Shown one piece after another: positions 16,921 through 61,765 of a stretch of 64,000 nucleotides of DNA. Both the position numbers and the translations under genes were made by a program. Origin of the DNA: Candidatus Bathyarchaeota archaeon. GTDB taxonomy: Archaea; Thermoproteota; Bathyarchaeia; Bathyarchaeales; Bathycorpusculaceae. Under the pieces are notes generated by a model. The model ran no database searches. It was not told the DNA's origin and saw only the letters and a program-made list of their open reading frames with translations. Where the stretch lies: assembly GCA_963733095.1 (NCBI GenBank), contig CAVTBV010000009.1, positions 160,001-224,000 of the forward strand, in the 5' to 3' direction. Within the stretch, counting starts at the first letter, position 1. Every line of letters begins with the position of its first letter.

Positions 16921-17562
16921 TTAGTTTTCCCCTTCACATTCACACGCCGTTTTCAAGCCCAACGCTAAAAGGTACATTTCGCTGCTTTGTTGTCGGCTTG
17001 CCTGAGGCTTCACCAATTTTACCTCTTCAAAGAGGGTTTTCACGTGTAGAAGGAAGTCGTTTAGCAGATCGCCTTCGAAGACTTTGACAAAAAAGTTTCC
17101 GTTTACTCGCAGTACACATTGGGCGATTTCTAGGGCTTGGGTCGCTAAGTCGATTTGTCTTGCGTGGTCAACTTCCCATACGCCTGTGATGTTTGGGGCA
17201 GCGTCGCAGAGAACGACGTCCGCTTTGCGTGGAATAAACGAGATAATTTGGTCAACTACGCCTGGTTCTGTGAAGTCGGCGATGATTGTTCTGATATATT
17301 CTTGCGTGAAGGGGTCAATCGGCTTTAAGTCTAAGCCTAAAACAAAGCCGTGTTTGCCTGTCATTTTTCTTGCCGCTTGAATCCAGCCGCCTGGAGCCGC
17401 ACCTAAATCTACAACGACATCGCGCAGTTTGATGAAGCCGTATTTCTCGTTAGCTTGAACCAGTTTGTATGTGGATCGGCTACGATAATTTTCTTCTTTG
17501 GCTTTTTTATAGTAATATTCGTTTTTTCTCTCACGTATCCAAGCTTTCGGCAACGGAATCAT
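16921..17562 (-). CDS. rlmE: 23S rRNA Um2552 methyltransferase (FtsJ/RlmE)
   Basis: YRSRS.YKL, DLGAAPGGW, DAAPN, KVF, ASR..SSEMY. Confidence 0.95.
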   Translation of the reverse strand: MIPLPKAWIRERKNEYYYKKAKEENYRSRSTYKLVQANEKYGFIKLRDVVVDLGAAPGGWIQAARKMTGKHGFVLGLDLKPIDPFTQEYIRTIIADFTEPGVVDQIISFIPRKADVVLCDAAPNITGVWEVDHARQIDLATQALEIAQCVLRVNGNFFVKVFEGDLLNDFLLHVKTLFEEVKLVKPQASRQQSSEMYLLALGLKTACECEGEN

Positions 17563-17980
17563 CCTCTGGTATGCTTGGCTCTGGTGCTGAGGCGCTTTGA
17601 CCTTCAGTGTCAGTAACTGCTGGCGCTGGCGGTTTTCCTAAGTTCAGTATCCAATCGGTTAGTTTGGGGCAACTTTTGGGGGAAAGGGCGGTTGTGGGGT
17701 CGCAGCGTGCGTTGTCTGGGCATAATAAGCATGGGCAATCCACGATGGTTTCTATGGATGCAGGCAGCCTTTTGGGGTAGAGCCTATAGGTCCATCTGCC
17801 TTCTTGGAGTTCTTTTTCCCTGCGGATAAGCCCCTTCTCTTCTAGTTTAATCGACACGCGAGAACCTTCGCGGCTGCTTGCGCCGAGTTCACGCCATAAA
17901 TCTGATTGCAGTACACCCTGATAACCTGTACCGACGACGTAGTGAAGTGCTTTCTGTTCAAGGTCATTACGCTTAGGCAT
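17531..17980 (-). CDS. TFE-beta / RPC34-like winged-helix Fe-S protein
   Basis: GVLQSDLWRELG.SSREGSR wHTH plus C-terminal PCLLCP...C...SPKSC..LTDW. Confidence 0.8.
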   Translation of the reverse strand: MPKRNDLEQKALHYVVGTGYQGVLQSDLWRELGASSREGSRVSIKLEEKGLIRREKELQEGRWTYRLYPKRLPASIETIVDCPCLLCPDNARCDPTTALSPKSCPKLTDWILNLGKPPAPAVTDTEGQSASAPEPSIPEDDSVAESLDT

Positions 17981-18017
17981 TTATGATCAGTTCCAAATAA
18001 TACAGTAATATAAGCGT

Positions 18018-18046
18018 TGGATTCACATAAAAATATGTTTCCTTAG
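18018..18046 (+). repeat. Candidate attL
   Basis: tggattc-acataa-aaatatgtttccttag versus tggattc-aaatatgtatccctag at 28164-28186. Confidence 0.55.
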
Positions 18047-18119
18047 CTGTAGCTGAGAATATATCTACCATCTTTAGTTTTTTTGAAAAGCTTTTTAACG
18101 ATAGAGAGGTTGTTAGCAA

Positions 18120-19490
18120 TTGAGCGATTTGACTCAAGCTAATGAAAAATGGGTTCTATCCTTTGAAAGTGGTCGCAATTGGCTACCTCACTTGCCTAGT
18201 TCAAGTACTAAAGAGCCGTTCATTCGACACCTAAAGAAATACTCTCTATGGGCTAAAATGAATCCTGATGAATTGATAAATTTCAAGATTGAAGGTTTAA
18301 AAGCAGTAGCAACAGAAAAGGAATTCCAAGCCGAAAGAATGCTAGAGAAGTATCTTAGACAAACTGGAATGACGCAATCAGTTGCAGCATACGCCAAAAA
18401 CGCCATTATTAGCTTCTATAAGCACAATTGGAGAGAACTTAATTCAGAAGTCGCTAGAGATATTGAGCCACCAGAAGCAAAAAAGAGAACGCCTAAGCTA
18501 GAAGAAATTCAAGAGCTAGAAAGCAACTGTACAACCGCTAGAGATAGGGCTTTAATTTGGTTTTTCCCGTCTACTGGTTTTAGGATAGGAACGCTAACCA
18601 AGCTATTTAGAAATGACCTTAAACCTACTGGTGACGCTGAAGTACCTTATTATCTGGAAATAGAAGCTAAGAGACTAAAAGGCTCTGGAATTGGTAAGTA
18701 CAAAGGGCTTAAACAAATCACCTTTGTTAACAGCTTTGTTTGGGCTAAGATGCAAGATTACTTCGCTGAAGCTAAAAGAAGAGGTTTTAATCTAACTGAG
18801 GATTCACCGCTATTTATCGGATACAAAGGTCGATTTACTAAAGAAGAAAGAAAGCTATCCGTTAAACCCAAAAAAGTTAGAGCAATGACTGAAGGAGCAA
18901 TCAATAACACTTATGACAATGCATCACTAGCCGCTTGGAAAGACTTAGAGGTAAAACGCTTTTCTCCCCATGACAACAGAGATGTTTTACAGAGTGCTTT
19001 AGAGAATGTCGTTAACGATAACATGATAGCTCCTATGTTAGCCCATAAACCAAAAAACGCTGTTGACTTCCACTATTCAAGCCACTTATGGCAAGAGCTA
19101 TTACCAAAATACAAATTGGCATTACCAAAACTAATCCCACAAACCACAGCAGAACTTAAAATAGAAATAAACCAACAGAAAGCAACTAACCAAAAACAGC
19201 AATCCGAAATAGAAGCCATAAAAGAAGAAATGAATGCAAGATTTGAAAAACTAGCTTCTCTTTTGAAAAGTGATGCAAAAGTATTACCGCCTGAAAATCA
19301 AGATGAAATATTTAGATTAAAGACAAATGGATTACTATCGGAAAGTGAAATAGCACAAAAGCTTAAACTTAAACTTAAGGCAACGGAAGACCATTATATT
19401 GATGAAAACGGAAAAGAATTAGACCCTAAAACTTTAACGGAAGAGCAAAAGAAGAAATTTAAATCTGTAACGGAGTATTGGGAACTTTAA
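18120..19490 (+). CDS. Tyrosine recombinase/integrase
   Basis: RDRAL..STGFRIG (Arg), SPHDNR (HxxR), MLAH, FHYS (Tyr): full catalytic set; coiled-coil C-terminal extension. Confidence 0.92.
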   Translation: MSDLTQANEKWVLSFESGRNWLPHLPSSSTKEPFIRHLKKYSLWAKMNPDELINFKIEGLKAVATEKEFQAERMLEKYLRQTGMTQSVAAYAKNAIISFYKHNWRELNSEVARDIEPPEAKKRTPKLEEIQELESNCTTARDRALIWFFPSTGFRIGTLTKLFRNDLKPTGDAEVPYYLEIEAKRLKGSGIGKYKGLKQITFVNSFVWAKMQDYFAEAKRRGFNLTEDSPLFIGYKGRFTKEERKLSVKPKKVRAMTEGAINNTYDNASLAAWKDLEVKRFSPHDNRDVLQSALENVVNDNMIAPMLAHKPKNAVDFHYSSHLWQELLPKYKLALPKLIPQTTAELKIEINQQKATNQKQQSEIEAIKEEMNARFEKLASLLKSDAKVLPPENQDEIFRLKTNGLLSESEIAQKLKLKLKATEDHYIDENGKELDPKTLTEEQKKKFKSVTEYWEL

Positions 19491-19569
19491 TTTACGCTCT
19501 TTTCCCACATCTTTTTTATTCTCTTTTTACCCTAAGATTCTAAATTATAGCCAACTATCAAAGATTGAT

Positions 19570-19605
19570 ACTAAGATAGTATGTGATTCTAAACTAAGAT
19601 AGTAT
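19570..19605 (+). repeat. 13-bp perfect direct repeat (actaagatagtat x2)
   Basis: 19570-19582 and 19593-19605. Confidence 0.8.
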
Positions 19606-19619
19606 AGATAATATAATAT

Positions 19620-20313
19620 AGGTAGTAAAGTTAGTGTAATAAGTACACCCATAGCATAGTTAACGACTAAATTTTCTGTTGATTCTATTGGACCTAGCCT
19701 ACATTTTCGCTTTAGTTTGTCGGATAGTGGCTTTAGTCACTATCAATAATCTTGTCTTATCATGGACTCAATAAGGGATATTGTTAATTATCTAGAGTAA
19801 ATTGTGCGGATACATCGCTAGTGATTTTTATCCGACACAATATTTTAGGAATAAAGCAGAGAGTTAACTAACAGACTACAGCGAACAGTTTAATCTTGGA
19901 TAATGTCGGCTCTGGTTGTGTCGGTCTTCAAATAAGAAGATAAAGAGCCGAAAGTGTCGGTCATATGGGAAGACTGCTATCTCTGGGCTATAAGAGTTTG
20001 TCGTATAGATAACTGAGATAACTTATGCTTTAGCCCATATTCCCGACAGAACGGCACTATCTTATCGCCTATTCCTTATTATAATATCTATACCGACACA
20101 GAGAACACCAGAATATAGATAAGATTATAAATTAACTAAGATAACCTACACTTATAGACAGATAACCGACAAACTAACTCCGCTACCCGATTGAATCCGA
20201 CACCAAATCCGACAGCCAGCATCCATAGTTAAGCTACCCCTGAAAGAAAATCATTGTCCTCACGATGGCTATTCTGAAGCCTGAATATTAGGTTTATTTT
20301 TCATGGTTTCTTT
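19620..20313 (+). ncRNA. Putative large structured ncRNA (or folded ssDNA element)
   Basis: ORF-free; more than 15 nested helices found by eye; G-U wobbles mostly on the + strand; ends approximate. Confidence 0.65.
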
Positions 20314-20315
20314 GT

Positions 20316-20699
20316 TTAGTGAAGATTTTTTATTTCCTTATAACAAGTATCTAATTTTCTTAAGAGTTTAACAACTCCATAATACGCAATCAATGAAGTT
20401 ATTGCAGCTACGAAAAATAAAAAAGTATTTATGGTGAAAGCTGGAGGTTGGTTTATGAATAATTGTATTGCAAATACTGTAAAAGTGACTCCACCAGCAA
20501 AAAACCCAAAAATTCCAGCTAAGTAGATTTGAAGGTCTGAATTGAGTTGGGCTAACCTGATTTGTAAGGCTCTATCTTCAATTATAGCATTTCTATTTTG
20601 AATAGCAAAGGCTTTTTCAATCTTTTCTTTAATGGCTAAATATTTGTCTAGCGCTTTATTGAATTGGTCTAAGCCTTTATCAACATCACTATCAGGCAT
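20316..20699 (-). CDS. Hypothetical 2-TM protein
   Basis: 127 aa ORF, coiled-coil plus two hydrophobic helices. Confidence 0.7.
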   Translation of the reverse strand: MPDSDVDKGLDQFNKALDKYLAIKEKIEKAFAIQNRNAIIEDRALQIRLAQLNSDLQIYLAGIFGFFAGGVTFTVFAIQLFINQPPAFTINTFLFFVAAITSLIAYYGVVKLLRKLDTCYKEIKNLH

Positions 20700-20755
20700 T
20701 TTTATCTGGTTGTTCGTATGGCGTTAACTGCTTAAAAGTTTTATCTTTAGTTTTG

Positions 20756-20938
20756 TTATCGGTGTCTATCATAGTCGTTTTTAGATAACACATAACCAGC
20801 TAGAGAAATTAAGAGAAAACCGACAACGCTCATGATAATTTGACCGATTAAACTTAAAGCCAAAACGTTAACTAAACCAAAAAGCAAAACAACTACTCCT
20901 AAAGCAAGAACAAATTTGAAAGCGTCTACTAATCCCAT
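20756..20938 (-). CDS. Small 2-TM protein
   Basis: 60 aa; SD-like GAGGT upstream. Confidence 0.7.
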   Translation of the reverse strand: MGLVDAFKFVLALGVVVLLFGLVNVLALSLIGQIIMSVVGFLLISLAGYVLSKNDYDRHR

Positions 20939-20950
20939 ATTATTTACCTC

Positions 20951-21277
20951 TTAGAAGTCAAACGGTGAACGCTTTTTCTTTTTTCTGCTCGGTGGCTCAC
21001 CTAAGAAGGCATTTTCATTAACTTGAGGAACTTCCCACATCTTGTTAAGCCTCTTATTGTACGCTATTCGGTCACGTTCATCTTGCCGTCTTTCTCTTTC
21101 TTCATTCTGCACAAAAGCTTGACCTCTGGCATATCCTCTTCCAGCATGATAATGTTCTCTTTCAATTTGAGCGTAATATTGCCTATCTTGCTCTTGTATT
21201 CGTTTTCTTGCTTCATTCTCACGGTAGGCTCTTTGAATACCTCTTCCGAGCAATTTACCAAATATCCATAGACCCAT
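20951..21277 (-). CDS. Charged hypothetical protein
   Basis: 108 aa, R/E/Q-rich, tandem with the next gene. Confidence 0.7.
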   Translation of the reverse strand: MGLWIFGKLLGRGIQRAYRENEARKRIQEQDRQYYAQIEREHYHAGRGYARGQAFVQNEERERRQDERDRIAYNKRLNKMWEVPQVNENAFLGEPPSRKKKKRSPFDF

Positions 21278-21469
21278 TCCAAAATAGTAAAAAGTTTTAC
21301 CAAATCCTATAAGAATTCTCTTGCCGATATTCTTTGAATTTGCCGTTTTAGATTCCAGCTTGTAAGTGTTTGTTTGAAAGTCTATTTATAATCTGTGGTA
21401 AACTCTTTCACTCGCTTTTTTGCATCGCTTGTTTTGCCTTAGTTCTTGTTTGTGTTTTGCTTGTGAAAA

Positions 21470-22117
21470 CTAACTAGGTGTTAAACCTAGAAAATTTGCC
21501 AGAATGAAGGAAATAAAGATAGCAGTTATGAAAAGAGCGAAAGAAATATAGAAAATTCTAAGGTATATTTTTGTGCGCATTTTACCCGTAAATTGTTTCT
21601 GTCCTGAGAGTTTGCAAATATGTTTTTCAAGTGACCTTGTTATTATTGGTGAAATAAAAACTTGAGATACCATTAATCCCATAGCAAATGCGTTTTTAAC
21701 GCTCTGTAAAAGGATGGGATTTGTTGAATTAAGGATTACATTTAACGCTATGAATGGAGTTACCAAATAATATATCAAACAGCTAAAAAGCAAACCCCAC
21801 GAAAGAATACGATACTCCATTGAGTCAGTCAACATTCCCCTTAACCCTATAGAATACGAAGCTAAGAGTGAGAGAATAATTCCTATTATTGAGAGTGCAA
21901 AACTGCTTGAAAATCTGTTAAAGAAAAAGGCGTGTTGACTTACAAGGATTCCAAGAGAGAATGTTGCAATTGCCACTAGGATGTTGTATAAACTATCTAT
22001 CTTATTGAGAACATTATCTCTTTTTCGCTCTTTTTTCGAGTTCAGAGATTCTTCTAGAAGTATGTCGATTTTTTGCTCTAAGGATTTGCTTTCTTCTGTT
22101 ACCACATATTTTCGCAC
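21470..22117 (-). CDS. Multi-TM hypothetical protein
   Basis: 215 aa ORF with about 5 TM helices. Confidence 0.7.
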   Translation of the reverse strand: MRKYVVTEESKSLEQKIDILLEESLNSKKERKRDNVLNKIDSLYNILVAIATFSLGILVSQHAFFFNRFSSSFALSIIGIILSLLASYSIGLRGMLTDSMEYRILSWGLLFSCLIYYLVTPFIALNVILNSTNPILLQSVKNAFAMGLMVSQVFISPIITRSLEKHICKLSGQKQFTGKMRTKIYLRIFYISFALFITAIFISFILANFLGLTPS

Positions 22118-22194
22118 TCGATAGATTGTTTTAGGAAAGCTTTTAGTTTTTGCTCTTTTGCGCTTTTTGAATTTAATGACTTAGTTATTTAATA

Positions 22195-22926
22195 TTACTT
22201 GATGTTCTCTAACTCTAGTGTAAGCTGTTGAATTTCGTTATCAACCTCTTCATTCTCTTTAAGCTCTTTTGAATAGAGTTCTCGAGTTTTAATTTGAAAT
22301 TGTTCAAAGAAATTATCGACCAAAGATTGATATTGATTTAGTGCAAGCTTTAAATCAATCTCATTGTGATTTTCGATATATCTTACAAAACCTTCACGTT
22401 CAAGTATTGGGTAAAGTTCTTCTTTTCTTTCAAGCAAGCTTTCCTTTGTTAAGAGTATGCTCTGTCTAAATGGTTGACCAATTCCCATTCTAGAGAAGTG
22501 TGCTACCAAATCTAGTAATTCATAGTGTTGGGTTAAATGTCGCAAGCATCTGCTAAAATTATATGAATCATCGGACTGTAAAGAACCAATTTTTGTTTTA
22601 TAAAAATCACTTATTCTTTCGTACCTTTCACTTAACTTCTTCCCCTGAGCAATCAATGTATAGGTGCTAGCAAGGTAGTTATGAAGTAATCTGGAAAGTT
22701 CTGCAAAGAACAAAACTCTTTCTTTCATTATGTTTATCAAAAATGTTGTATTTGCTTCATAGCTATTAATTGCCGTAGACAACTCTTGATAGTTTTTGTT
22801 AACCGCATAATGAGTGTTTCTAAAGTTATTGAGCATCTGAGAAACTTTAGTGCCGTACAATGTTCCTTTCTTTTCGTCTAGTAACGCCAATTTTTCTAAA
22901 ATTTGCAGTCTTCTATTTTGGCTCAT
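22195..22926 (-). CDS. HEPN-like protein (possible RNase toxin/Abi)
   Basis: All-helical; RLLHNYLAS upstream and LRHLTQH (Rx4H) motif. Confidence 0.6.
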   Translation of the reverse strand: MSQNRRLQILEKLALLDEKKGTLYGTKVSQMLNNFRNTHYAVNKNYQELSTAINSYEANTTFLINIMKERVLFFAELSRLLHNYLASTYTLIAQGKKLSERYERISDFYKTKIGSLQSDDSYNFSRCLRHLTQHYELLDLVAHFSRMGIGQPFRQSILLTKESLLERKEELYPILEREGFVRYIENHNEIDLKLALNQYQSLVDNFFEQFQIKTRELYSKELKENEEVDNEIQQLTLELENIK

Positions 22927-23011
22927 TAGTATCTTTTGATAAGTGTACACTTTACTTTTAGTTCTTTGCCCTTTTGCCCTTATGTAAAAGTTAGGTACTC
23001 TCTGGAAAAAT

Positions 23012-23133
23012 AAGAAGCCCAAACTAAGCCCCGTTAGAAAAAAATATACTCACACAACCTAAAAAGACCTATAATGACTTATTTTTTAAATTGGTTTAAA
23101 ATTTATGCCCTAAAAAAAAATTGCGCTCTGATT
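23012..23133 (+). repeat. Degenerate long inverted repeat, left arm
   Basis: aagaagcccaaactaagcccc / agaccta / gctctgatt are collinear with the reverse complement of 26510-26608. Confidence 0.6.
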
Positions 23134-23216
23134 CTTCCTTCTTCTGTACGTTAATAGGGTGTCCACTAGTATATTATAATATAATATTATTTTATATTAT
23201 AACTACTAAACTATAA

Positions 23217-23882
23217 CTAACTACTACTAACTAACCCTCTATTCCCATATCTCTGATTATTGATTGGCTCACTATCGTTCGCTTCTGTGTCACATATGGG
23301 TATAGAGTGATAATTATCTAAGGAAGGATTGATATCCTGTGAGTGTATAATTTTTTCTTGGGCTATCTTTTTATTTTCTTCTATTTGCTTAAGTTGGTTA
23401 ATAATAAAGTCATTTTTAATTTTACATAAACGGTTGAATTCTTCATTTATGAGGTTTGAATCTAGAAAATAGCGTGTATTGTTATCTGGTAGTATGTTGT
23501 CATTGACCGTTATGTGTGAGTCTGGGTTTTGTCTAAGATATTTACCCGCTAGCAATGCATCGGTGAAGTCATAAAAAACCAATCGGTCAACTTTAGTTTT
23601 GGCTATGTTAAATTGTCGGTAATAATCCAGAATTGCTTCTTTTATTTTAAGTTTTAAATCGTGCCTATTTATAACGCCTTTTTTAGCTACCAAGTTTGGA
23701 TGTTGTTCTAACTGTCTAGCTCTAACCGTCTTTTGCCAATCGGTCAGGTTATTTTCAGTTTCTTCTTGTTCGTCAATATAGTTTTTCAGAACTAAAAGTA
23801 CATGACTGAATTTCCATTGCTCAGAACTTAGACCCGTTAACTCTTCTCTACTCTTCATACTTTTTCCCTTCACTTTTGACAT
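23217..23882 (-). CDS. Hypothetical protein
   Basis: 221 aa ORF divergent from the + strand operon; no recognisable motif. Confidence 0.7.
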   Translation of the reverse strand: MSKVKGKSMKSREELTGLSSEQWKFSHVLLVLKNYIDEQEETENNLTDWQKTVRARQLEQHPNLVAKKGVINRHDLKLKIKEAILDYYRQFNIAKTKVDRLVFYDFTDALLAGKYLRQNPDSHITVNDNILPDNNTRYFLDSNLINEEFNRLCKIKNDFIINQLKQIEENKKIAQEKIIHSQDINPSLDNYHSIPICDTEANDSEPINNQRYGNRGLVSSS

Positions 23883-23988
23883 TAGAAATAGCCTTAAGCT
23901 ATACTCTATCGTAAGTATTAAATGTTACGATACTATTTAAATATTTTTCCTTTAAAAAATAAATGTTGTTACATGTCCTAAAAAAGAC

Positions 23989-24250
23989 ATATGTTAATAG
24001 AAGGGAAGGTTCGTGTTAGTCGAACCTGAAGAGTTAATTAACATATATGTGCTTCCACCCTTATAAGCTTTATGGCGTAATAAGACACCATATATGGCGA
24101 AAGTTAACGTTAAAAGAGCAAACCCGTGTTAGTCGGGAATGCCAAAGTTGAAGGATTTTTTAGGTTAAAAAAAGAGTGTCTATGGTGGTGAAATGGATGA
24201 AATGTATAAGCTACCTATGCCGACACCCAAACATAGGATAATAGCTTATA
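23989..24250. other. Hairpin-rich non-coding locus (candidate origin or small RNA)
   Basis: Two stems with the identical loop TGTTAGT; a third stem has CCGACACCCAAA as its loop. Confidence 0.65.
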
Positions 24251-24437
24251 AGTGAAGTTCACGAATTTAAATATTTTTATTGCTAGCAACAATCAATTAT
24301 TTTGTAGTTAGGAATATGGTTATATTATACATATTAACCGCAAAATCACTAAAAAGAGTTATTGGAAATAAAAAGACATAAATAGCTATATGAAGCTATA
24401 CGACTCTATAGCAAATATTAATATGGGAGATATGTAA

Positions 24438-24716
24438 ATGGCAAAACATGTTCAAAAACAATATTCAATAAACACTAGTTTAGATATTAATGAAAACCTA
24501 AGAATCCTGCGTTATAAGACTAATATGAACAATGCAGCTATTCTAAGCCAAATCATAACGCCACTAGCAGAGAAATTAGGCAACCAAGAAAAACCATGCG
24601 GTTTTATAGTTTATACCGTTAATGACCAAATAATCATTCAAACATATGGTTTTGGCAGTATTGTTTGTTCTGGTAAAGCCACCGCAACATTAAGCGATAT
24701 TTTAGGAGTTGCTTAA
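24438..24716 (+). CDS. Hypothetical protein (RHH-like N-terminus)
   Basis: Strand-helix-helix-like pattern; SD GGGAG; first gene of an operon. Confidence 0.65.
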   Translation: MAKHVQKQYSINTSLDINENLRILRYKTNMNNAAILSQIITPLAEKLGNQEKPCGFIVYTVNDQIIIQTYGFGSIVCSGKATATLSDILGVA

Positions 24717-24718
24717 CC

Positions 24719-24925
24719 GTGACTAAACAAAATCCTCAAACATTGAAAGAATCTACTGACCTTATCATTCAAGGGATTCAAGCCAAACAACTAAGAGAAA
24801 AAACATTAAACGGTGAAATTATCCAAACCTATGATGTTAAAGGTGAACTTGATTCAATCCCAAGAAATTTTGCTAGAAAGCTAGACAAACCTTGCGATGA
24901 GCTATCTAAAGAGAAGGAAGTCTAG
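24719..24925 (+). CDS. Hypothetical protein
   Basis: 68 aa, SD AGGAG, tightly packed. Confidence 0.65.
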   Translation: MTKQNPQTLKESTDLIIQGIQAKQLREKTLNGEIIQTYDVKGELDSIPRNFARKLDKPCDELSKEKEV

Positions 24926-24927
24926 CC

Positions 24928-25506
24928 ATGACTGAAGACGAAAAAGAAAATACCTATTCCGTTCCATTGCCAAAAGACAGTAAAACAATTAAGATGACCA
25001 TTGACGCAACAGCTAGAGAACAGCGTTTACTAGAAGACCTAAACAAAGCTAACCAAACTATAGGCGCACTCATGGGGCAACATAAAAAAGAATTCATCGA
25101 AGGAGAACAACGACCAGCCCCGAACGGTGACCAAGAGGATACTTCAACTATTGACCGTGAAGATAGAGCTAGAAACGGAAACGATACAAGAATACAATCT
25201 GCTGGGAGCTACGTAGATGTAGATTGGGTTAAAGGTTCAACGGTTCCAGAGGTCATTGAGAAGATTGAGTACTTAAGTAAGGTTGCAGATAACAAAGAAG
25301 TTTTTAAGAAAATCCATAATTCTCTGGTAAAAAAGGTGCTTCATGGGAAGCCAATTTCTATACAGTTTGAAGGTAGCCTAAAACAATTAGCCACTACAAG
25401 AGAAAAACAAATTCCAGAATTTTGTGATGACTCAACACGAAAACAGCTTCAATCTTGGAACACTAAAGTTAGAGCCAATAGGGTAAATTGGTCGGAGATA
25501 GAATAA
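24928..25506 (+). CDS. Hypothetical protein
   Basis: 192 aa, operonic. Confidence 0.75.
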   Translation: MTEDEKENTYSVPLPKDSKTIKMTIDATAREQRLLEDLNKANQTIGALMGQHKKEFIEGEQRPAPNGDQEDTSTIDREDRARNGNDTRIQSAGSYVDVDWVKGSTVPEVIEKIEYLSKVADNKEVFKKIHNSLVKKVLHGKPISIQFEGSLKQLATTREKQIPEFCDDSTRKQLQSWNTKVRANRVNWSEIE

Positions 25507-26003
25507 TGTCACTAGAAAAGAAACATGTTCCAAAAAGTGGATTTTGGAAACAAGAACATGACGGAAAAATGTATTGGGTCGAAAGTGACAAATTTGGAAA
25601 CCTAATAAAACTTTATGACCCCTTAGAAATTGAAGGCATAAGTCGTAGTGCAAATTACACTATAGTTTTTTTACGTGAATACACAGATACAAATTCTTTC
25701 AACGGCAAAATAAAAAAATGGTTTGCACAAGACATAAAGATGCATATAGGAGAAAATGTTGATTCATCGATAGTGATAAGGTTCGATTCTTATTCACGTA
25801 AATTCTTTATATCTGATTTAAAACCCGTTGGTCAAACTTTTTTAGCTCCACTTGAAAGCACACCTGAGTTAATTGTTACAAAAAGCGAACCTTACCCCGT
25901 AGACCAAATACAAGCGAAAGAAATCTTAGCTAAATATTCCTATGGATTCGGCAAGGTCGAAGTTGACGCTCAGGGAAATATCGAATATTATCAGACCTGT
26001 TGA
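25506..26003 (+). CDS. Hypothetical protein
   Basis: TAATG overlap with the previous gene (start MSLEKK). Confidence 0.75.
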   Translation: MSLEKKHVPKSGFWKQEHDGKMYWVESDKFGNLIKLYDPLEIEGISRSANYTIVFLREYTDTNSFNGKIKKWFAQDIKMHIGENVDSSIVIRFDSYSRKFFISDLKPVGQTFLAPLESTPELIVTKSEPYPVDQIQAKEILAKYSYGFGKVEVDAQGNIEYYQTC

Positions 26004-26007
26004 TTCT

Positions 26008-26202
26008 ATGACCCGTTGCGACTATTGCCACCAAGTTATTTTTCACAAAAATAATGAACGATTTTGTAACAGAGACCATAGTCACGCATATGTTCGCAAA
26101 CTGAGCGAAGTTTCAAGACGCTACATGTATAATTCACCTGAGCAACTTGAAGCCATAAAATTATATAAAAAACTAGGGAAGGATTACAAAAATGGTTTAT
26201 GA
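26008..26202 (+). CDS. Small zinc-finger protein
   Basis: MTRCDYCH...FCNRDH. Confidence 0.65.
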   Translation: MTRCDYCHQVIFHKNNERFCNRDHSHAYVRKLSEVSRRYMYNSPEQLEAIKLYKKLGKDYKNGL

Positions 26203-26323
26203 AAATTATAATGAATGTTCATGTGGCTTCGATAAAGCTGAGACCCGTATAGTTAATGGTCAAGTCTGGATAGTTTGCAGTAATCCCTTATGTCAAAAAG
26301 TACGTTATCGTTCATGGTTCTAA
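26192..26323 (+). CDS. Small Cys-rich protein (43 aa)
   Basis: Manual translation MVYENYNECSCGFDKAETRIVNGQVWIVCSNPLCQKVRYRSWF. Confidence 0.55.
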   Translation: MVYENYNECSCGFDKAETRIVNGQVWIVCSNPLCQKVRYRSWF

Positions 26324-26509
26324 ACCACTCTCCCCCTAGTTGGAGATTATATACTAATCAAATAATCTCAAAAAAATATGGGCTATTCTAAGGCTGTTTT
26401 TCTTTCTCTCACATAATCGCCTTATTTCCTCACTATAGCTTTTAGGCTAGCTTTTCTTTTTTGGCTTATGCATATCGATTATTATGCTATATCGACCATA
26501 ATAAAATAA

Positions 26510-26608
26510 AATCAGAGCTAACCCTAAAAATAATTTTTCAAAATATTTTTTGTTTTAGGTCTCTCTATGTGTAAAAAGTTGAAAAAAGGGGCTTAAAATG
26601 GGCTTCTT
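26510..26608 (-). repeat. Degenerate long inverted repeat, right arm
   Basis: ggggcttaaaatgggcttctt (26588-26608) is an 18/21 reverse complement of 23012-23032. Confidence 0.6.
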
Positions 26609-26821
26609 TTCCATTTTTTTCAAAATTTTCCCTATTTTAGACCCTATTTAAACCAAAAGTTTGTTAAGTTTGCTTCTCAAATCGCTTAAAATACAACTTT
26701 TGGTCCATGCTCACCCAGAGTATTAAAATATTTTCAAAAAGGAGCGTGAAAAAAGACGAAAAATGATAAAACGAAAAAATCTAAGACGGAACCTCAAAAA
26801 GAAGCGTTAAATTACAATTCG

Positions 26822-28111
26822 TTGATAAAAAAAATTGCTGAGAATGGTGACCTTTGCGTTCTCGGCATGAAAGGCACATGTAAAACCACTCTGCTTATGC
26901 ACTTAGCTAGAAACATAATGGAAGACCTAGACAACCACTTGATTATATTTGAGACCTTCCCGAAATGGCAAAAGGAATTCGATATTATACCCTACATGAT
27001 AATAAGCGATAGTGACGTTCAAGAAAAAGAAAATTCGCCATATATGCAAGAAAATTATTCTTATATTCAATGGTCTAAAAACTATGAGATAGCTAACGAA
27101 AGCGAAGTTTTAGAATTTCTAAAGACTAATAGAAATTGCTTATTCCTTATCGAAGCTGAAGACATGGAACGAATAAGCGCCTTTATGGAATTCGTGATTT
27201 ATACATGCTACAGAAAACAATACTTGAGAGCTAAAGCTGAAAACTTAGAGACTGTTAACGCTAATTATTGGTTCTTATGCGAAGAGGCACATAACCTTTT
27301 AGACAGTACAGTACTATCTAAAAAAACCTTTAACAAACTCCGAAAAATGCAGAGCGAATTCAGAAACTTAAAGATGCATCTTATAGTTGTGACTTTACGG
27401 TTACAATCACTTAGCCCAAAAATTAGAAGTACCATGTCTCTTTTGTGTTCCCGTGTAAGTTTGGATGACTACATGCTTAAGCTGAGAGCGTTATTAAGAA
27501 ATAGCGAATACAGAGACCTTATCACAACATTACCCAAAGGCGAATTTGTTTTTCCAGAGACAGACCAAAAATTAACAACTAAGCCATTTAATCAAGCTGG
27601 AAAGCCATATGAATGGAAACCAGAACCAGAGCCAACTATAGAAGAGACCACAGAAGAGCCTAGCTCAGAACCAGAACAGCCTAAAACCATTATGGGATTT
27701 ATAAAGAATCTATTCCACAAAAGCAAACCTGAGATTATAACCCAAAAAGAATACGATAGACTAAACAACTTAGACGATAAAGAATCAGAACCAGAGATAA
27801 AGATAGTTAGGGAAAAAGTTATAGCTATCACAATTAAGAAACCCAGAGCCACAAAACCAAAAACTACAGAGCCGATTAAAGAACCTGAAAAATCAAATAT
27901 GGAAAAGCTAAGAGATGTTTATTCCTCAGATAGCCAAGCATCTAAAGATTATGAAGCTTGGAAGAAAAAAGCTTTAGCCGAAAAGAAGCAAACAGAAACT
28001 AAAGAAGCAGAAACCGAAAGCAAAGAGAGGGAAGACAACATAAATGAAGATTCAAAAGGCGATTTTTTAGCCCTAAATGATGATGATTTAATGTTTAGTG
28101 AAGAGGAATAA
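26822..28111 (+). CDS. FtsK/HerA-superfamily-like P-loop ATPase with low-complexity tail
   Basis: Walker A GMKGTCKT, Walker B WFLCEEAH, FRN..hhhhT.R...L...IR; E/K/P-rich C-terminus. Confidence 0.8.
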   Translation: MIKKIAENGDLCVLGMKGTCKTTLLMHLARNIMEDLDNHLIIFETFPKWQKEFDIIPYMIISDSDVQEKENSPYMQENYSYIQWSKNYEIANESEVLEFLKTNRNCLFLIEAEDMERISAFMEFVIYTCYRKQYLRAKAENLETVNANYWFLCEEAHNLLDSTVLSKKTFNKLRKMQSEFRNLKMHLIVVTLRLQSLSPKIRSTMSLLCSRVSLDDYMLKLRALLRNSEYRDLITTLPKGEFVFPETDQKLTTKPFNQAGKPYEWKPEPEPTIEETTEEPSSEPEQPKTIMGFIKNLFHKSKPEIITQKEYDRLNNLDDKESEPEIKIVREKVIAITIKKPRATKPKTTEPIKEPEKSNMEKLRDVYSSDSQASKDYEAWKKKALAEKKQTETKEAETESKEREDNINEDSKGDFLALNDDDLMFSEEE

Positions 28112-28163
28112 AAAAAATGAACAACCACAAAAGTCAAAAATCATATATCCTTAGTTGGGGCTG

Positions 28164-28186
28164 TGGATTCAAATATGTATCCCTAG
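28164..28186 (+). repeat. Candidate attR
   Basis: aaatatgtatccctag is 14/16 identical to 18031-18046; shared tggattc upstream. Confidence 0.55.
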
Positions 28187-28202
28187 TTAAATGTGGAATG
28201 AC

Positions 28203-29231
28203 ATGAGAAAAACCAAGAACGATGATTCAGGCAAATACTGTTTAGGCGTTGAATCTTCAGCTGACGACTTTGGAGTCGGCATCGCGAGCTTTAGCGGCGA
28301 AATTCTGGCTAACAAATCAGAAGGCTATATCCCAGCAGAAGGCGGAATCCACCCGAGAGAAGCCGCAAGGCACCATTCCGAGGTTGCGGACAAAGTTCTA
28401 AAAGAAGCCTTATCCAAAGCTGGCGTGAAACCGCGGGAATTGTCCGTTATTGCCTTCTCTCAAGGTCCAGGCTTAGGACCTAGCCTGCGAACAGGAGCCA
28501 CAGTTGCCCGAGCTTTAGCCTCATTCCTTGAGGTTCCTTTGGTAGGCGTCAATCATTCCATTGCCCACATCGAAATTGGAAAACTCAAAACAGGAGCCAA
28601 AGACCCCGTTACGCTTTATGCTTCAGGCGGCAACACTATGGTCACAGCTTTCGAGTCGGGACGCTACCGTGTCTTTGGCGAAACCTTAGATATTGCATTG
28701 GGTAACTGCCTTGACGTTTTCGCAAGGGAAGCAGGGCTTAAACATAAGAAGGGTCTGCCTCTTGGCGCAGCCGTGGAGCAGTTGGCGGCTAAGGGTGAGC
28801 GGCTTGTTTCCTTGCCGTATGTGGTTAAAGGCATGGATTTGTCGCTTAGCGGCTTATTGACTGCAGCTATAACCCACTTACAAAAGGGTGATTGTCGGCT
28901 CGAGGACCTGTGTTATAGTCTTCAAGAACACGCTTTCTCCATGGTAACAGAGGTGACTGAGCGGGCGTTGGCACACACCGAGAAGAAAGAAGTTTTGCTC
29001 ACGGGCGGAGTTGCAGCCAATAAACGACTCCAATTGATGCTTAACTCGATTGCTTTAGAACATGATTCAAGCTTTAGCGTGGTTCCCCTAGAGTTTGCAA
29101 CTGACAACGGCGCTATGATTGCTTGGACAGGCGTTTTGGCGTTTAAACATGGGTTGTTTACGGCTTTGGATGAGAGTTTTGTAAAACTACGTTGGCGAGT
29201 CGACAAGGTGGATGTGCCATGGATACAATAG
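28203..29231 (+). CDS. kae1: KEOPS t6A synthase Kae1
   Basis: GGIHPREAA, GPGLGPSL, NHSIAHIE, SGGNT, GETLD, DNGAMIA. Confidence 0.97.
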   Translation: MRKTKNDDSGKYCLGVESSADDFGVGIASFSGEILANKSEGYIPAEGGIHPREAARHHSEVADKVLKEALSKAGVKPRELSVIAFSQGPGLGPSLRTGATVARALASFLEVPLVGVNHSIAHIEIGKLKTGAKDPVTLYASGGNTMVTAFESGRYRVFGETLDIALGNCLDVFAREAGLKHKKGLPLGAAVEQLAAKGERLVSLPYVVKGMDLSLSGLLTAAITHLQKGDCRLEDLCYSLQEHAFSMVTEVTERALAHTEKKEVLLTGGVAANKRLQLMLNSIALEHDSSFSVVPLEFATDNGAMIAWTGVLAFKHGLFTALDESFVKLRWRVDKVDVPWIQ

Positions 29232-29887
29232 ATAAAGTCAACTCGGCAAGGCTGCTAAAGAAAGGTGCCGAAGCCAGCTTATTCCTCTCTGAATGGCATC
29301 AGCGAAAAGTAATCATTAAAGTCCGTATTCCAAAAAAGTACCGTCCGCCACAGTTGGATGAGCAAATCCGCAGCTACCGCACCGTCCATGAACCGCAACT
29401 GATGCATGAAGCCAAAATTGCCGGGGTAACGACACCTTTGATTTACATGGTTGACGTGCCTCAATCAACCATCATCATGGAGTTTATTGAGGGCCAACAG
29501 GTAAAACAGGTTCTAAACAAGGTTACAAAAATGGAACGCCACGATTTATGCGTGAGCATCGGTGAATCCATCGCGCGGCTACATATACGCGGATTAATCC
29601 ATGGTGACCTAACCACTTCCAACTTGATTCTAAACCCAAAAGACAAAATCTTCTTTGTGGATTTTGGATTGGGCGAAAAAAACCCAGAGCTTGAAGCCCA
29701 GGGGGTAGACTTGCATCTGCTCAAGCGCGCCCTGCAGAGCACACATTACCCGTTCTGGGAAGAATGCTTCCAGAACGTTCTATGTGGTTATTCATCCATC
29801 GTAGGTGCTGAGTCATTGGAAAAGGTTTATGAGAAAATCCGTGAGATTGAGAGACGTGGACGTTATGTCGAAGAGCGCAAACAGTAA
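29219..29887 (+). CDS. bud32: KEOPS kinase Bud32
   Basis: KGAEA, HGDLTTSN, DFGL, RGRY. Confidence 0.96.
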   Translation: MDTIDKVNSARLLKKGAEASLFLSEWHQRKVIIKVRIPKKYRPPQLDEQIRSYRTVHEPQLMHEAKIAGVTTPLIYMVDVPQSTIIMEFIEGQQVKQVLNKVTKMERHDLCVSIGESIARLHIRGLIHGDLTTSNLILNPKDKIFFVDFGLGEKNPELEAQGVDLHLLKRALQSTHYPFWEECFQNVLCGYSSIVGAESLEKVYEKIREIERRGRYVEERKQ

Positions 29888-55724: not shown

Positions 55725-56135
55725 GGTTCCCCTCTCGGAGAAATACTCACTGCCAAAGCATAAGAAGCTTTTTCCAAAATCCATCTTTAGATTATATTGA
55801 TGCCGATAGTTTGTAGAAGCCCTTATTTTTTTACCACGAGCATGAAGATTTTTGAAGTTGTTGTTGTTAAGCAATGCAGCAGCATTTCAGCCCTTCACTA
55901 CTCGGTGCCCGAAGCGCTCGCTACTAACATGAGCCAAGAACTCAATTCAAACATTCTTTAAATTAATCCCTTTCTCAATAAAAATGAGCCGCTTAAACAA
56001 ATATCATTAATTAAAATAGCTTTATTTGAGTGGGGATTCAATTTGATTTCCCACATAAAACACCCAAGGATTGGAGTTCCACTCCTGTCAAAATCATATA
56101 ACAGTAACTAATTAGATTTCGTCCCAAGTGTTTGC

Positions 56136-57797
56136 TTATTTCCAAGCCTTTTCTATATATTCACTTAACATTCTTTTAGTGTTATAATAAGAAGCCAGCG
56201 AAATAGAATTTTTTTGCATTTCTACCCATTTTTCGTGGTTACTGTAAAATGTGGGCATTACCTTTTGTTCTAATACGTTGTATAAGCCGAGAGCATTTTG
56301 AAAATCTGTTTCATGTTGGTAACCAAAAGCCCAGCCTATTTTGCCTTCTTTTGTTTTGAATTCTTCATCTATCCATCCGTCCCAAGAACTAACATTTATA
56401 ACTCCGTTTGGAAGGGCTTTCATTCCGCTAGTTCCTGAGGCTTCATTGGGCGGTCGTGGAGTATTCAATAGAACATCAACACCCGCGATCAACGTGGGGC
56501 TGATTTCCATCCCGTAGTTTTCAATAAAAATGGTTGGGATCGCTCCATTAATTATTCGGCTCTCTTCATGAATCTTTGTTATTGCCTCTTTGCCATAGCC
56601 ATCTCTCGGATGGGCTTTTCCAGCCATTAGAATTTGGATTTTTCCCGATCCAATAAGTTTAAGCCTTTCTCTCTCGGTGAAAATCAATGTTGGTCTTTTA
56701 TATTCAGCTATTCTTCTAAACCAACCTAGAGTCAGTTTGTTCCTATCCAAATCTATTCCATATTCATCTTCAATGAAGTCCAATAAAATTATCTTGTTTT
56801 CTAAGTGAGCTTTCCATACTTCGTCATTGGGTAATCTCAGGGCATCTTTTAATTTTTCTGGGTTCTCTTCCCAACCAGGAAAATGCCTATCAAATAACCC
56901 TTTAAAACTACCACTGGTCCATGTCCCAAGATGTACAGCATTGGTAATATAATCTATATTTTTATTAGGAAACATATCTCGGGCTGCTTCAGCATTTTTT
57001 TTAGAAACACCGTTCTGATAATCGCTTAAACTCATGGCAAGTTTTGTCATGTTTAAACAGTTTGCCTGTTCACCGTATTCTTTAATTTTGTCTAATGGAA
57101 AAGAATCTTTTAGAATGCGCTCAACCAATCTCATAGGAAATATTTCGTGTCCCGCGGGAACTAAAGTATGAGTTGTGAAGCTAAATTTTTTCTTTGTTTT
57201 ATCCTCATCCCAATTGTATTTATTTGCAAGTTCTAATGTTGCAAGCGCCGTATGACCTTCGTTCATGTGGTACTTTCGTATATTGTACCCTAGCTTTTCT
57301 AAAAATCTAACTCCACCGATTCCAAGGACTACTTCTTGTTTGAATCTATGGCTTTGGTGTTCGTCGTATGTAGTGGATTTGCCCTTCCAATAGCAATTCT
57401 CACTGATTTCTTTATCTTCTGTAGCATTCTCACTTAATCTAGTGTCAAGAAAATATATCAAGACTTTATTGTTATGTCCATTTTTAATGACATACTCTTC
57501 TGCACCAATTGTAACGTCTCTATCTTCAATTTTTACCTTGACCTTTTCATCCCTTTTTCTCAACACACCGAAGGGATTTGACCTTTTTAGCACTTCTTTT
57601 TGCTGGTAATTTTCAATTTTTTGTTCAAAATACCCTTTATGATGTCTTAATGACACACCCACTAACGGAAAATTTAGTTCAGCTGCACCTTTTATTGTAT
57701 CTCCCGCTAAAACACCAAGCCCTCCACAACAGGTGGGAAGGCGAGCGTTTACGCCGATTTCCATTGAAAGATAAGCGACACTATCCGTATATGACAT
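56136..57797 (-). CDS. glgP: Alpha-glucan phosphorylase (short form)
   Basis: SME, GGLGVLAGD, HMNEGH, FTTHT, YKR, AGKAHP, EASGTSGMK. Confidence 0.93.
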   Translation of the reverse strand: MSYTDSVAYLSMEIGVNARLPTCCGGLGVLAGDTIKGAAELNFPLVGVSLRHHKGYFEQKIENYQQKEVLKRSNPFGVLRKRDEKVKVKIEDRDVTIGAEEYVIKNGHNNKVLIYFLDTRLSENATEDKEISENCYWKGKSTTYDEHQSHRFKQEVVLGIGGVRFLEKLGYNIRKYHMNEGHTALATLELANKYNWDEDKTKKKFSFTTHTLVPAGHEIFPMRLVERILKDSFPLDKIKEYGEQANCLNMTKLAMSLSDYQNGVSKKNAEAARDMFPNKNIDYITNAVHLGTWTSGSFKGLFDRHFPGWEENPEKLKDALRLPNDEVWKAHLENKIILLDFIEDEYGIDLDRNKLTLGWFRRIAEYKRPTLIFTERERLKLIGSGKIQILMAGKAHPRDGYGKEAITKIHEESRIINGAIPTIFIENYGMEISPTLIAGVDVLLNTPRPPNEASGTSGMKALPNGVINVSSWDGWIDEEFKTKEGKIGWAFGYQHETDFQNALGLYNVLEQKVMPTFYSNHEKWVEMQKNSISLASYYNTKRMLSEYIEKAWK

Positions 57798-58075
57798 AGA
57801 TAGGGATGTAATTACTACAAAAATAATAAAGCTTTACACGCAAAAGCATAATCCTGTTATTTTTTGTGAACCTGAAGTTTATTCTTAGATTATAACCTCA
57901 ACAGTAAGTTTACAATACATTACTTTCTGTAACCATTACTCACCAGTTTCTTCTTTATGTGACTTGACGTAAGGTCGTTGGCGGGATTAGTAACAGAATG
58001 CTGTAACAAGTTAAGGAATTTAGTCACCACAAAAAGGGCGCAGATAAAACCCCTTCAATGAATTAGGAGCAGATT

Positions 58076-58091
58076 TGGAGCCTTCGGCGGG
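58076..58091 (-). other. tRNA 3'-end remnant (att-like)
   Basis: Reverse complement cccgccgaaggctcca = T-stem 3' side + acceptor strand + T + CCA. Confidence 0.55.
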
Positions 58092-58877: not shown

Positions 58878-58985
58878 AACCATTCTAAGTCTTGACCATG
58901 CCAATCATTGTCCTCTGATTTTATAGGCTAAGTTACCTGTTCAAAATGCTTGATGTCTAAGACGAAAAAGTATCATAAACAGATA

Positions 58986-59015
58986 TTGAGACGTCAGACC
59001 TGATTTTAGATAGAA
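58986..59015 (+). repeat. ~30-bp direct repeat, copy 1
   Basis: ttgagacgtcagacctgattttagatagaa. Confidence 0.75.
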
Positions 59016-59039
59016 GCTTAAGTTAGAATCGAACTGCTT

Positions 59040-59378: not shown

Positions 59379-59496
59379 ATTGATACCCTCGCATTTATTG
59401 CTAGAGTATGCTTATAAACCAATTGTTTAAGGTGTTACGGATCGTAACTAGTACATTAACTGGAGGTTGGAGAGATTAACAACTGCTTTCTTCCGA

Positions 59497-61709: not shown

Positions 61710-61765
61710 AATACTACAGAATATTTTCTTTTGTCCGCTCTTTTCTTTTCACTTCATTTTTCAGC

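Follow-up and report, generated by a model that had tools for sequence, protein, structure and literature searches.

A recurrent and apparently undescribed family of small integrative elements with a short FtsK-HerA-type ATPase in Bathyarchaeia

What kind of mobile DNA separates a winged-helix protein gene from kae1 in a genome of the uncultured class Bathyarchaeia, and how does it persist there? The question is raised by a window of 64,000 nt (the whole stretch of DNA analysed here, positions 160,001-224,000 of contig CAVTBV010000009.1, assembly GCA_963733095.1) from a Candidatus Bathyarchaeota archaeon, in which an initial annotation had seen an integrative element of ~10 kb and proposed a new family of small provirus, satellite or plasmid. 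The island at 18047-28186 is an intact, site-specifically integrated mobile element lying between a TFE-beta-like gene and kae1. Moreover, it is one of a family of elements, 5-10 kb long, that recur in one order of Bathyarchaeia. Their near-universal genes are those of an integrase and a short FtsK-HerA-type ATPase; a four-gene module, p92-p192-p171-p43, is present in most members, and the remainder is swappable cargo. The proposal of a new family of archaeal integrative element, apparently undescribed, has therefore stood, and among the three lifestyles a plasmid-like one is tentatively favoured over a provirus and a satellite.

The island differs in composition from its surroundings and is missing from most relatives. 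Its 10,140 nt have a guanine-plus-cytosine (GC) content of 0.342, whereas the two adjoining 10-kb stretches have 0.455 and 0.463; the profile runs at 0.31-0.38 across 18000-28100 and at 0.44-0.48 outside. When the 14.5 kb around the island were searched for in 40 relatives, the site proved empty in 21 of the 24 same-genus genomes, where the flanks are contiguous and either overlap by 11-16 nt or stand 44-62 nt of diverged spacer apart; two (G004 and G019) carry insertions of ~5 kb with a related integrase at the same site, and one (G009) is fragmented and not judgeable. The empty TFE-beta/kae1 locus for which the initial annotation had proposed to look was thus found, and the alternative that it had named, a region fixed in all relatives, does not apply. 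A third other occupied genome, G115, was found through its ATPase, and the four occupied-site elements measure 10,140, 6,201, 5,130 and 5,058 nt. The same att core stands at both ends in 4/4 occupied loci (the window copy, L033, L036 and L037), flanked inside the element by imperfect inverted arms (CTGTAGCTGTAG / CTACAGTTGCAG). In the window copy the two cores form an imperfect 16-nt direct repeat, with two mismatches between copies, which the borders first drawn at 18018 and 28186 fit (coordinates of all features in Table 1). The uninterrupted attB of G001 and G012, aligned with both junctions, reads ...TTGGATTCACATAAAAATATGTATCCCTAG / TTAAATG..., and the chromosomal attB core reads AAATATGT[A/T]TCC... 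There is no tRNA gene in the window, so a tRNA target is rejected; likewise, no long terminal repeats were found, the att repeat being too short and imperfect for the repeat finder. At the right border, integration swaps the DNA upstream of kae1 for element DNA, and the element end repeats, with a 4-nt gap, ~28 nt of what originally stood there, so that kae1 may still be expressed.

The enzyme responsible is a tyrosine integrase, which recombined attP with the chromosomal attB and left the imperfect 16-nt repeat at both ends. Its profile matches are modest (PF00589, 21.6 bits for a cut-off of 27.1, E 2e-4; phrog_216, E 0.003; NF040815 XerA, E 4e-7, far under the curated cut-off), and the catalytic order R-K-H-R-(H/W)-Y is present as R155, K187, H284, R287 and Y319. 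K187, R287 and Y319 are invariant in 29/29 family integrases, R155 is kept in 21/29 and H284 in 20/29, and the protein is 66-76% identical to the same-site integrases of G004, G019 and G115. Thus, the intact integrase that had been annotated is a full-length ORF (open reading frame) with its catalytic residues kept; the gene stays unsplit by integration, and no second copy occurs elsewhere in the host genome. The empty site in 21/24 genomes, the same att core in four loci, the foreign GC content and the conserved integrase residues together make the element mobile and site-specific. An inactive relic or an assembly artefact, that is, an immobile foreign fragment or a mis-binned join, is most improbable: neither an excised form nor a circular contig was seen, and three relatives (L034, L036 and L037) are decayed, but every ORF of the window copy is open, integrase and ATPase are full length with their catalytic residues, and both junctions carry the att core exactly where the sequence of 21 relatives runs on without a break, and a chimeric join would not put it there. 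The copy in the window is apparently intact.

The other near-universal gene, the ATPase, clearly belongs to the FtsK-HerA fold, as had been proposed. Its AlphaFold2 (AF2) model, from a 37-sequence alignment, has a predicted local distance difference test (pLDDT) value of 79, and above 85 over most of residues 1-270. VIA-align places it nearest Sulfolobus HerA (4d2i; Z 20.1, root-mean-square deviation 3.3, 230 residues aligned), followed by defence HerA (Z 19.5), the DndH C-domain (18.6), STIV2 B204 (4kfr; 18.0, with 194 of 204 residues aligned), VirB4 (17.4), TrwB (16.2), FtsK (14.8) and the Zot N-domain (11.0), with RecA/Rad51 at 12 or less. Foldseek likewise returned HerA chains with E down to 8e-9, the top rows being DUF4297-HerA and SIR2-HerA defence complexes, and gave STIV and STIV2 B204 TM values on target of 0.62-0.68. 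K21 (Walker A), E155 (Walker B) and the candidates for the Arg finger, R181, R193 and R202, are invariant in the 37 sequences. The protein begins with the P-loop, its residue 1 aligning to HerA residue 136 onward, and thus is without the HerA N-terminal barrel; hydropathy predicts no membrane helix in it. In sequence comparisons, TrwB_AAD_bind is weakly matched in 11 of the 37 family members (best E 1.7e-4), no member matches Zot in Pfam at E<=0.01, and PADLOC gives a weak "mad8" match (E 7.7e-6). A hexameric double-stranded DNA-translocating ring, as in the superfamily, is putative. The last 20 residues of the tail (409-428; window 28050-28111) are 55% identical in short terminal ORFs of two 5-kb elements that lost the ATPase core (L036:2837-3070 and L037:8151-8492), and in L129 and L085 the tail end has a nucleotide identity of 81-83%; either a functional tail peptide or attP-arm DNA would fit.

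Relatives of this ATPase define the family. They comprise 106 protein clusters at 90% identity, each with a generic name or none, 70 metagenome loci and 10 GTDB genome loci, the last all titled Bathyarchaeota or Bathyarchaeia; matches occur in 22 of the 120 genomes of the genus, host G000 included, and, out of 401 genomes sampled from the class, in 12, which fall in two families of one order. Iterated profile searches showed that p92, p192, p171 and p43 recur beside ATPases only ~22% identical to that of the window, and so the six-gene operon that had been taken for ORFans is not one, four of its six genes having homologues in many related elements. Among 28 sister elements, delimited from integrase to ATPase, the ATPase is present in 26, p192 in 21, p92 in 18, p171 in 17 and m275 in 2, the p92 and p192 profiles having been built partly from these loci. 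Usually, integrase and ATPase occupy opposite ends and enclose the p92-p192-p171-p43 block, which may have either orientation; in most elements the ATPase keeps a fixed, att-proximal position. The 5-6 kb same-site relatives are without the module, 5 of the 28 sister elements are without a predicted membrane protein, and small two-helix membrane proteins occur in only some. The decayed relatives comprise L034, with frameshifted integrase and ATPase, and L036 and L037, with an ATPase remnant only. Two element-length contigs, L044 (10,279 nt) and L069 (9,798 nt), have the integrase near one end, the ATPase near the other and no host flank, and in the low-GC metagenome contig L099:270-2568 the ATPase is followed 1 nt later by the integrase; these could reflect assembly branching at att sites or permuted, excised or polymorphic forms, and prove nothing.

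Table 1. Features of the island and its flanks, in window coordinates.
Feature	Position	Strand	Remarks
FtsJ methyltransferase gene	16921-17562		left flank
Winged-helix protein gene	17531-17980		left neighbour; B-block_TFIIIC match E 9e-5; TFE-beta label from the initial annotation
attL core	18031-18046		AAATATGTTTCCTTAG; where the site is empty (G001 and G012), the flank matches share 16 nt
attL element-side arm	adjoins 18031-18046		CTGTAGCTG
Tyrosine integrase, 456 aa	18120-19490	+	intact ORF; catalytic residues kept
CCGACA iteron-like array	19718-20214	both	10 motifs: 4 minus and 1 plus, then 5 plus
Minus-strand block	20316-23882	-	six ORFs
m127, 127 aa	20316-20699	-	2 predicted membrane helices; no homologue in iterated search of fetched loci
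m60, 60 aa, hydrophobic	20756-20938	-	1 membrane helix by 19-residue scan; one homologue, in metagenome locus L053
m108, 108 aa, basic	20951-21277	-	one homologue, adjoining the m60 homologue in L053
m215, 215 aa	21470-22117	-	4 predicted membrane helices; no homologue in iterated search of fetched loci
m275/243	22195-22926	-	243 aa from conserved ATG; ORF up to 23022
Terminator-like hairpin GGGGCTTAGTTTGGGCTTC, then T-run	23014-23032	-	after m221; inverted copy of the 26584-26610 motif
m221, 221 aa, soluble	23217-23882	-	4 local homologues; no match in Pfam, PHROGs, NCBIfam, PADLOC
Divergent intergenic control region	23883-24437		several hairpins; 555 nt between two operons
Plus-strand block	24438-26323	+	six ORFs (p92, p68, p192, p171, p86, p43)
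p92	24438-24716	+	probable ribbon-helix-helix (CopG-like) N-terminal domain and beta-rich tail; 23 local homologues
p68, small, charged	24719-24925	+	2 local homologues
p192	24928-25506	+	acidic N-terminus, coiled-coil-like (heptad-like) middle, helical C-terminal part
p171, 165 aa from database start	25506-26003 (ORF from 25488)	+	beta-rich, family hallmark
p86, Cys/His-rich, basic	25942-26202	+	zinc-finger-like; weak zf-FCS match, E 0.088
p43, four-Cys zinc ribbon	26192-26323	+	9 local homologues, between p171 and ATPase
Hairpin and T-run AAAAGGGGCTTAAAATGGGCTTCTTTT	26584-26610	+	~210 nt upstream of ATPase gene, after plus operon
FtsK-HerA-superfamily P-loop ATPase, 429 aa	26822-28111	+	core 1-270, then disordered acidic tail
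attR core	28171-28186		AAATATGTATCCCTAG; 5 nt upstream of kae1 ORF start
kae1	28191-29231		right neighbour; TsaD match E 1e-80
bud32-like ORF	after kae1		named from sequence and position only

The variable part of these elements was surveyed by comparing 283 non-core ORFs of the sister elements with Pfam, and a selection with PADLOC. The cargo includes an AbiJ_NTD4/PDC-S32 protein (L123:11123-11983), SIR2 proteins directly upstream of the ATPase in one element (L088:8719-9762) and near it in another (L045:7597-8691), a TIR/PDC-S35 protein (L046:12226-13122), and also HNH nucleases, glycosyltransferases and zinc ribbons; the stretch adjoining the ATPase looks like a cargo hot-spot. In addition, a family of 126-303 aa, found in nine sister elements (L121:8381-8896, L126:13116-13664, L044:4334-4936 and six more) and absent from the window copy, shows by eye a D...E-x-K pattern, which suggests a PD-(D/E)xK nuclease. 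Such genes raise the reading of the element as mainly a defence island carried by an integrase, in which the ATPase would form the centre of a HerA-type anti-virus system whose effectors (SIR2, TIR, nuclease, HEPN) are exchangeable. The DUF4297-HerA and SIR2-HerA chains at the head of the Foldseek rows, the two SIR2 genes beside the ATPase, the PD-(D/E)xK-like family and the "mad8" match all point that way, but a HerA-effector system has an N-terminal barrel and an effector operon, whereas the window ATPase starts at Walker A and is preceded by 498 nt of non-coding DNA and a zinc-ribbon gene; moreover, effectors occur in a minority of elements, mostly away from the ATPase, whose fixed att-proximal position in most elements is that of a backbone gene. 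This reading is accordingly held to be very unlikely.

In Pfam and NCBIfam all matches of the 14 element proteins stay under the curated cut-offs, and those in PHROGs and PADLOC are weak; in these four databases no Rep, primase, relaxase, capsid or type IV secretion system (T4SS) family was found, as the initial annotation had stated, nor do the 14 proteins match a capsid, terminase or portal family in Pfam or PHROGs, and among the 283 sister ORFs only two such matches occur, both below or near threshold. Relatives in collections of known elements were also sought: of the 86 pattern matches that the ATPase profile gave in IMG/VR none was confirmed, and the ATPase core and p171 had no match among INPHARED phages or PLSDB plasmids. 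A known virus or plasmid family, the second alternative that the initial annotation had named, was thus found neither in the four protein databases nor in these three collections. Spacer matches, which it had suggested as a further test, were not found either: host genome G000 has one CRISPR array (C1:190709-192914; 37-nt repeat, 29 spacers), whose spacers gave only chance matches of 13-21 nt (E at least 0.024) to the window and all fetched loci. A 32-nt match in G020 was considered as a spacer and rejected, since it lies outside any repeat array.

The plus-strand module opens with p92, whose N-terminus has the strand-helix-turn-helix pattern that fits a ribbon-helix-helix (RHH) protein. The single protein has no match in Pfam; compared with PDB sequences, its family profile finds CopG (2cpg) best, at E 0.0083 with 39 of 45 residues covered, ahead of the RHH proteins of the fusellovirus SSV (2kel and 4aai, E 0.09-0.15). 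From its sequence it is the probable operon regulator. The p192 family, always encoded directly upstream of p171, holds a G-T-A-P-L motif in its consensus, and neither its profile against PDB sequences nor a search of the ESM Atlas returned anything; for p86 the iterated profile search of the fetched loci returned no homologue. The DNA around these genes is also organised. Non-coding positions make up 2,657 of the 10,140 nt (26.2%), with three large blocks of 825, 555 and 498 nt, and the large structured non-coding share to which the initial annotation had drawn attention is well borne out. In the 825-nt block that follows the integrase, CCGACA occurs 10 times within 531 nt, whereas none of 2000 shuffles had more than 3 copies, and, folded as DNA, 19700-20230 has a z of -4.19; the array is a candidate origin or protein-binding array. 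In the intergenic control region two hairpins have the same loop, GTGTTAGTC, and 23975-24270 has RNA fold z values of -2.96 (+) and -5.43 (-); these hairpins were absent from the other loci fetched by then and are private to the window element. The two hairpins with T-runs, one on each strand, are copies of a GGGGCTTA-N4-GGGCTTC motif that could be a terminator or a protein-binding site, and the 26584-26610 copy is matched at 77-87% in L133 and L050, there also upstream of the ATPase. Rfam gave no RNA family at E<=1 in 17000-29500.

Taken together, the operon headed by an RHH-like gene whose family profile has CopG as its best match, the iterons and the structured control region, as well as the lack of any capsid signal, the lack of a relative in IMG/VR (ATPase profile) or INPHARED (ATPase core and p171) and the existence of members without a membrane protein, are the reasons for reading the window element as a capsid-less, plasmid-like integrative element, a tentative reading that we hold at somewhat less than an even chance. 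After excision, the circle would be maintained from the CCGACA array, and p92 would repress the divergent promoters by binding the hairpin-rich 23883-24437, by analogy with CopG on small plasmids. The proteins p192, p171 and p43 would act on element DNA, in initiation or handling, and the ATPase hexamer would be a double-stranded DNA motor that replicates or moves the element. Since several family members are without any gene for a membrane protein, cell-to-cell transfer, if any, would have to rely on functions of the host or a helper. The minus-strand genes, for membrane proteins and the protein with an Rx4H motif, would be accessory, and probably cargo that serves in conflict or exclusion, comparable with the SIR2, TIR and AbiJ-like genes in the sister elements.

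Several points weigh against this plasmid-like reading. None of the known families of replication initiators, primases or helicases was recognised, and a replication role for p192, p171 and the ATPase is for this reason purely inferential. The CCGACA array is not common to the sister elements, the CopG match of p92 is weak, and the p92 and p192 counts come from profiles built partly from the counted loci themselves. None of 45 loci above 4 kb is a circular contig or one bearing inverted terminal repeats, all being without terminal repeats, and no excised form was seen. The structure models cover p171 and the ATPase, and a capsid among p192 and the minus-strand proteins is possible. Finally, FtsK-HerA ATPases of B204 size are best known as the packaging motors of viruses (PMC6563490, PMC4158269; these and the other papers cited are represented here by excerpts).

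The last point leads to the alternative of a provirus of a new virus family, which we regard as unlikely, though it is the strongest of the rivals. In such a provirus the ATPase would package the genome and p92-p192-p171-p43 would be a morphogenetic module, with p171 as a capsid protein of new fold, p192 scaffold-like or DNA-condensing, and small membrane proteins lining a virion membrane. The size and fold of STIV2 B204 shared by the ATPase core suit this view, genes for packaging ATPase and capsid normally adjoin each other (Krupovic et al. 2019, PMC6563490), and a small element with such an ATPase and one jelly-roll protein, ArcVen-P3, has been proposed earlier (Makarova et al. 2014, PMC4158269). 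The hallmark protein p171 is confidently modelled (AF2, pLDDT 91.5) as strands and one helix, and has 326 representative clusters at E<=0.001 among 1.84 billion proteins; moreover, the window copy has the 60-aa hydrophobic m60, and spindle-virus capsid proteins typically consist of two hydrophobic helices with a short turn (Duan et al., PMC10541130). However, p171 has no jelly-roll, HK97 or other capsid match, the best fold comparisons being Foldseek E 0.019 in PDB and 0.028 in BFVD and VIA-align Z 3.8; PDB sequences gave no match, no Pfam family is common to more than one of 141 members, and ESM Atlas clusters are unnamed. A PH domain, suggested by many rows, was set aside, as Z values of 2.5-3.0 are too weak for use. 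Also against a provirus, of the 28 sister elements 17 rather than all have p171 and only some a small two-helix membrane protein, 5-6 kb same-site relatives do without the module altogether, and the searches of IMG/VR, INPHARED and the host's 29 spacers found nothing. That the whole family consists of proviruses of an unrecognised Bathyarchaeia lineage, with p171 (perhaps together with p192) as new-fold capsid and a minimal HerA/B204-type motor, is a somewhat more doubtful proposition still; if true, it would mean a packaging-ATPase lineage without a jelly-roll capsid.

Established virus groups were compared as well. None of the HK97-fold capsid, portal and large terminase families of Caudoviricetes is matched in Pfam or PHROGs; apart from integrase and ATPase, no ORF of the window copy exceeds 275 aa, and portal and large terminase are too large for such ORFs. 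Pleolipovirus spike proteins are much larger than 275 aa. No PHROGs family of pleolipovirus proteins, whose core is a spike protein, an internal membrane protein and a conserved NTPase (PMC5867852), is matched among the element proteins.

Two marginal matches in sister elements bear on a third lifestyle, that of a satellite or hitch-hiker, which would integrate and excise by itself, take packaging or transfer from a co-resident virus or conjugative element, and use its ATPase and core module to redirect or exploit that helper. The matches are to Phage_capsid_4 (L086:5917-6981; 24.6 bits for a cut-off of 27) and HK97-gp10_like (L134:8106-8576; 22.7 bits for a cut-off of 21.4), and, if real, they would mean that some family members carry parts of head-tail viruses. 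The very small size of the elements (5-10 kb), with no recognisable replication, capsid or transfer genes, also suits a satellite, and so do the defence cargo hot-spots, which bacterial phage satellites carry as well. Nevertheless, no helper was identified, both head-tail matches are marginal, the L086 protein finding nothing in PDB sequences, the window copy has neither gene, and the satellites known to us encode their own replicase; a satellite is thus improbable, and the plasmid-like element remains the reading that we prefer.

The minus-strand block of the window copy, which that reading treats as accessory, matches the membrane ORFs of the initial annotation, with helices predicted in m127, m60 and m215. 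Its HEPN-like ORF, m275, fared less evenly. The family comprises 22 protein-database clusters, and the Rx4H motif, with R129 and H134 counted from the conserved ATG, is invariant in 23 sequences and also present in a 3-sequence alignment; profiles of Pfam, PADLOC, NCBIfam and PDB gave no match, and none supports a HEPN fold. It is therefore a HEPN candidate on the strength of the motif, and probable accessory cargo, with no similarity to the AbiJ-like cargo protein of L123. Elsewhere in the window, a second low-GC island (56000-62500, GC 0.34-0.36) holds a 211-aa ORF (58143-58778) that matches the SSV-type "Archaeal phage integrase" PF16795 at E 2e-6. Small ORFs of unknown nature come next, and the island is probably a further small integrated element, whose integrase may be split.

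Bathyarchaeia are among the most abundant archaea of sediments, and to our knowledge their mobile elements are almost unknown. The present element offers a handle on gene flow and on the traffic of defence genes (SIR2, TIR and AbiJ-like cargo) in a class without cultures, could serve as a backbone for genetic tools, and provides a test case for a minimal FtsK-HerA motor on a 10-kb element. Among known systems of comparable size, actinomycete integrative and conjugative elements such as pSAM2 are ~10 kb long and move as double-stranded DNA with a single FtsK-like translocase and no T4SS. Their Tra proteins are larger and membrane-anchored, and they have recognisable Rep genes, whereas the window ATPase has no predicted membrane helix and comes from another domain of life. 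Relaxase and VirB4, signatures of conjugation, have no match in Pfam or NCBIfam; the fold of the ATPase has TrwB and VirB4 among its relatives and lies nearer to HerA. With the HerA-effector systems (SIR2-HerA and DUF4297-HerA; 8zir, 8j4u and 9c1m) the element shares, along with cellular HerA, the closest ATPase folds, and the SIR2 genes that adjoin or lie near the ATPase in two sister elements; it differs from them in having no barrel, no adjacent effector in the window and an ATPase that is a fixed backbone gene.

Among viruses, inoviruses resemble it: their genomes are small and integrate, their genes are short, small hydrophobic proteins are encoded, and the sole marker is an FtsK-HerA ATPase, by which (as pI) they have been detected in archaea (Roux et al. 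2019, PMC6813254), but the pI/Zot ATPase is membrane-anchored, and that of the window has no membrane helix, no Zot match in Pfam and a Zot score of 11.0 against 20.1 for HerA. STIV/PRD1-type viruses and ArcVen-P3 share a stand-alone FtsK-HerA ATPase of ~200-270 residues and, in the latter, a small element (PMC4158269); they have jelly-roll capsid genes beside the ATPase, and none is recognised in the window element, of whose possible capsid proteins p171 alone was modelled. In the dark-matter islands of archaea, genes for HerA-like ATPases rank with the most frequent ones (Makarova et al. 2014, PMC4158269). For Bathyarchaeia, four virus families have been proposed, two tailed, one filamentous and one spindle-shaped, and, as far as the excerpts of that work go, none has the gene set of the window element (Duan et al., PMC10541130); the available part of a 2026 provirus survey mentions no such element. 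A prior description was not found in the literature searched, although supplementary tables of the cited papers may list related contigs.

Two classes of archaeal elements come closer. The cryptic integrated elements (CIE) catalogued in Thaumarchaeota (Krupovic et al. 2019, PMC6563490) are small integrase-bearing islands, mostly below 20 kb, without viral or conjugative signature genes, and their targets include intergenic or protein-coding sites, in all of which the window element is like them. Unlike CIE, which, as described there, are a holding category with the integrase as the only signature, the present family has hallmarks of its own (ATPase, p171, p192 and p92) and a Bathyarchaeia host. 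The pT26-2 family of Thermococcales and Methanococcales (Badel et al. 2019, PMC6972569) is, like the present one, integrative, with a conserved core module and a variable region; its core ATPase, t26-14p, resembles HerA/VirB4 and STIV2 B204 and has been proposed to act in DNA transfer, its core proteins have no matches outside the family, and its replication genes are variable or missing. The descriptions set the two apart, since pT26-2 elements measure 17-38 kb, with seven core genes (t26-5p to t26-15p) that encode mostly membrane proteins and an integrase that is split on integration, whereas the present elements measure 5-10 kb and have soluble core proteins and an intact integrase; a tblastn search of PLSDB, which may not include pT26-2, gave no match for the ATPase. 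Nevertheless, as far as these excerpts describe it, the pT26-2 family would be the nearest analogue in concept: an integrative element with a conserved core module that includes a HerA-like ATPase, beside a region that varies from one member to the next.

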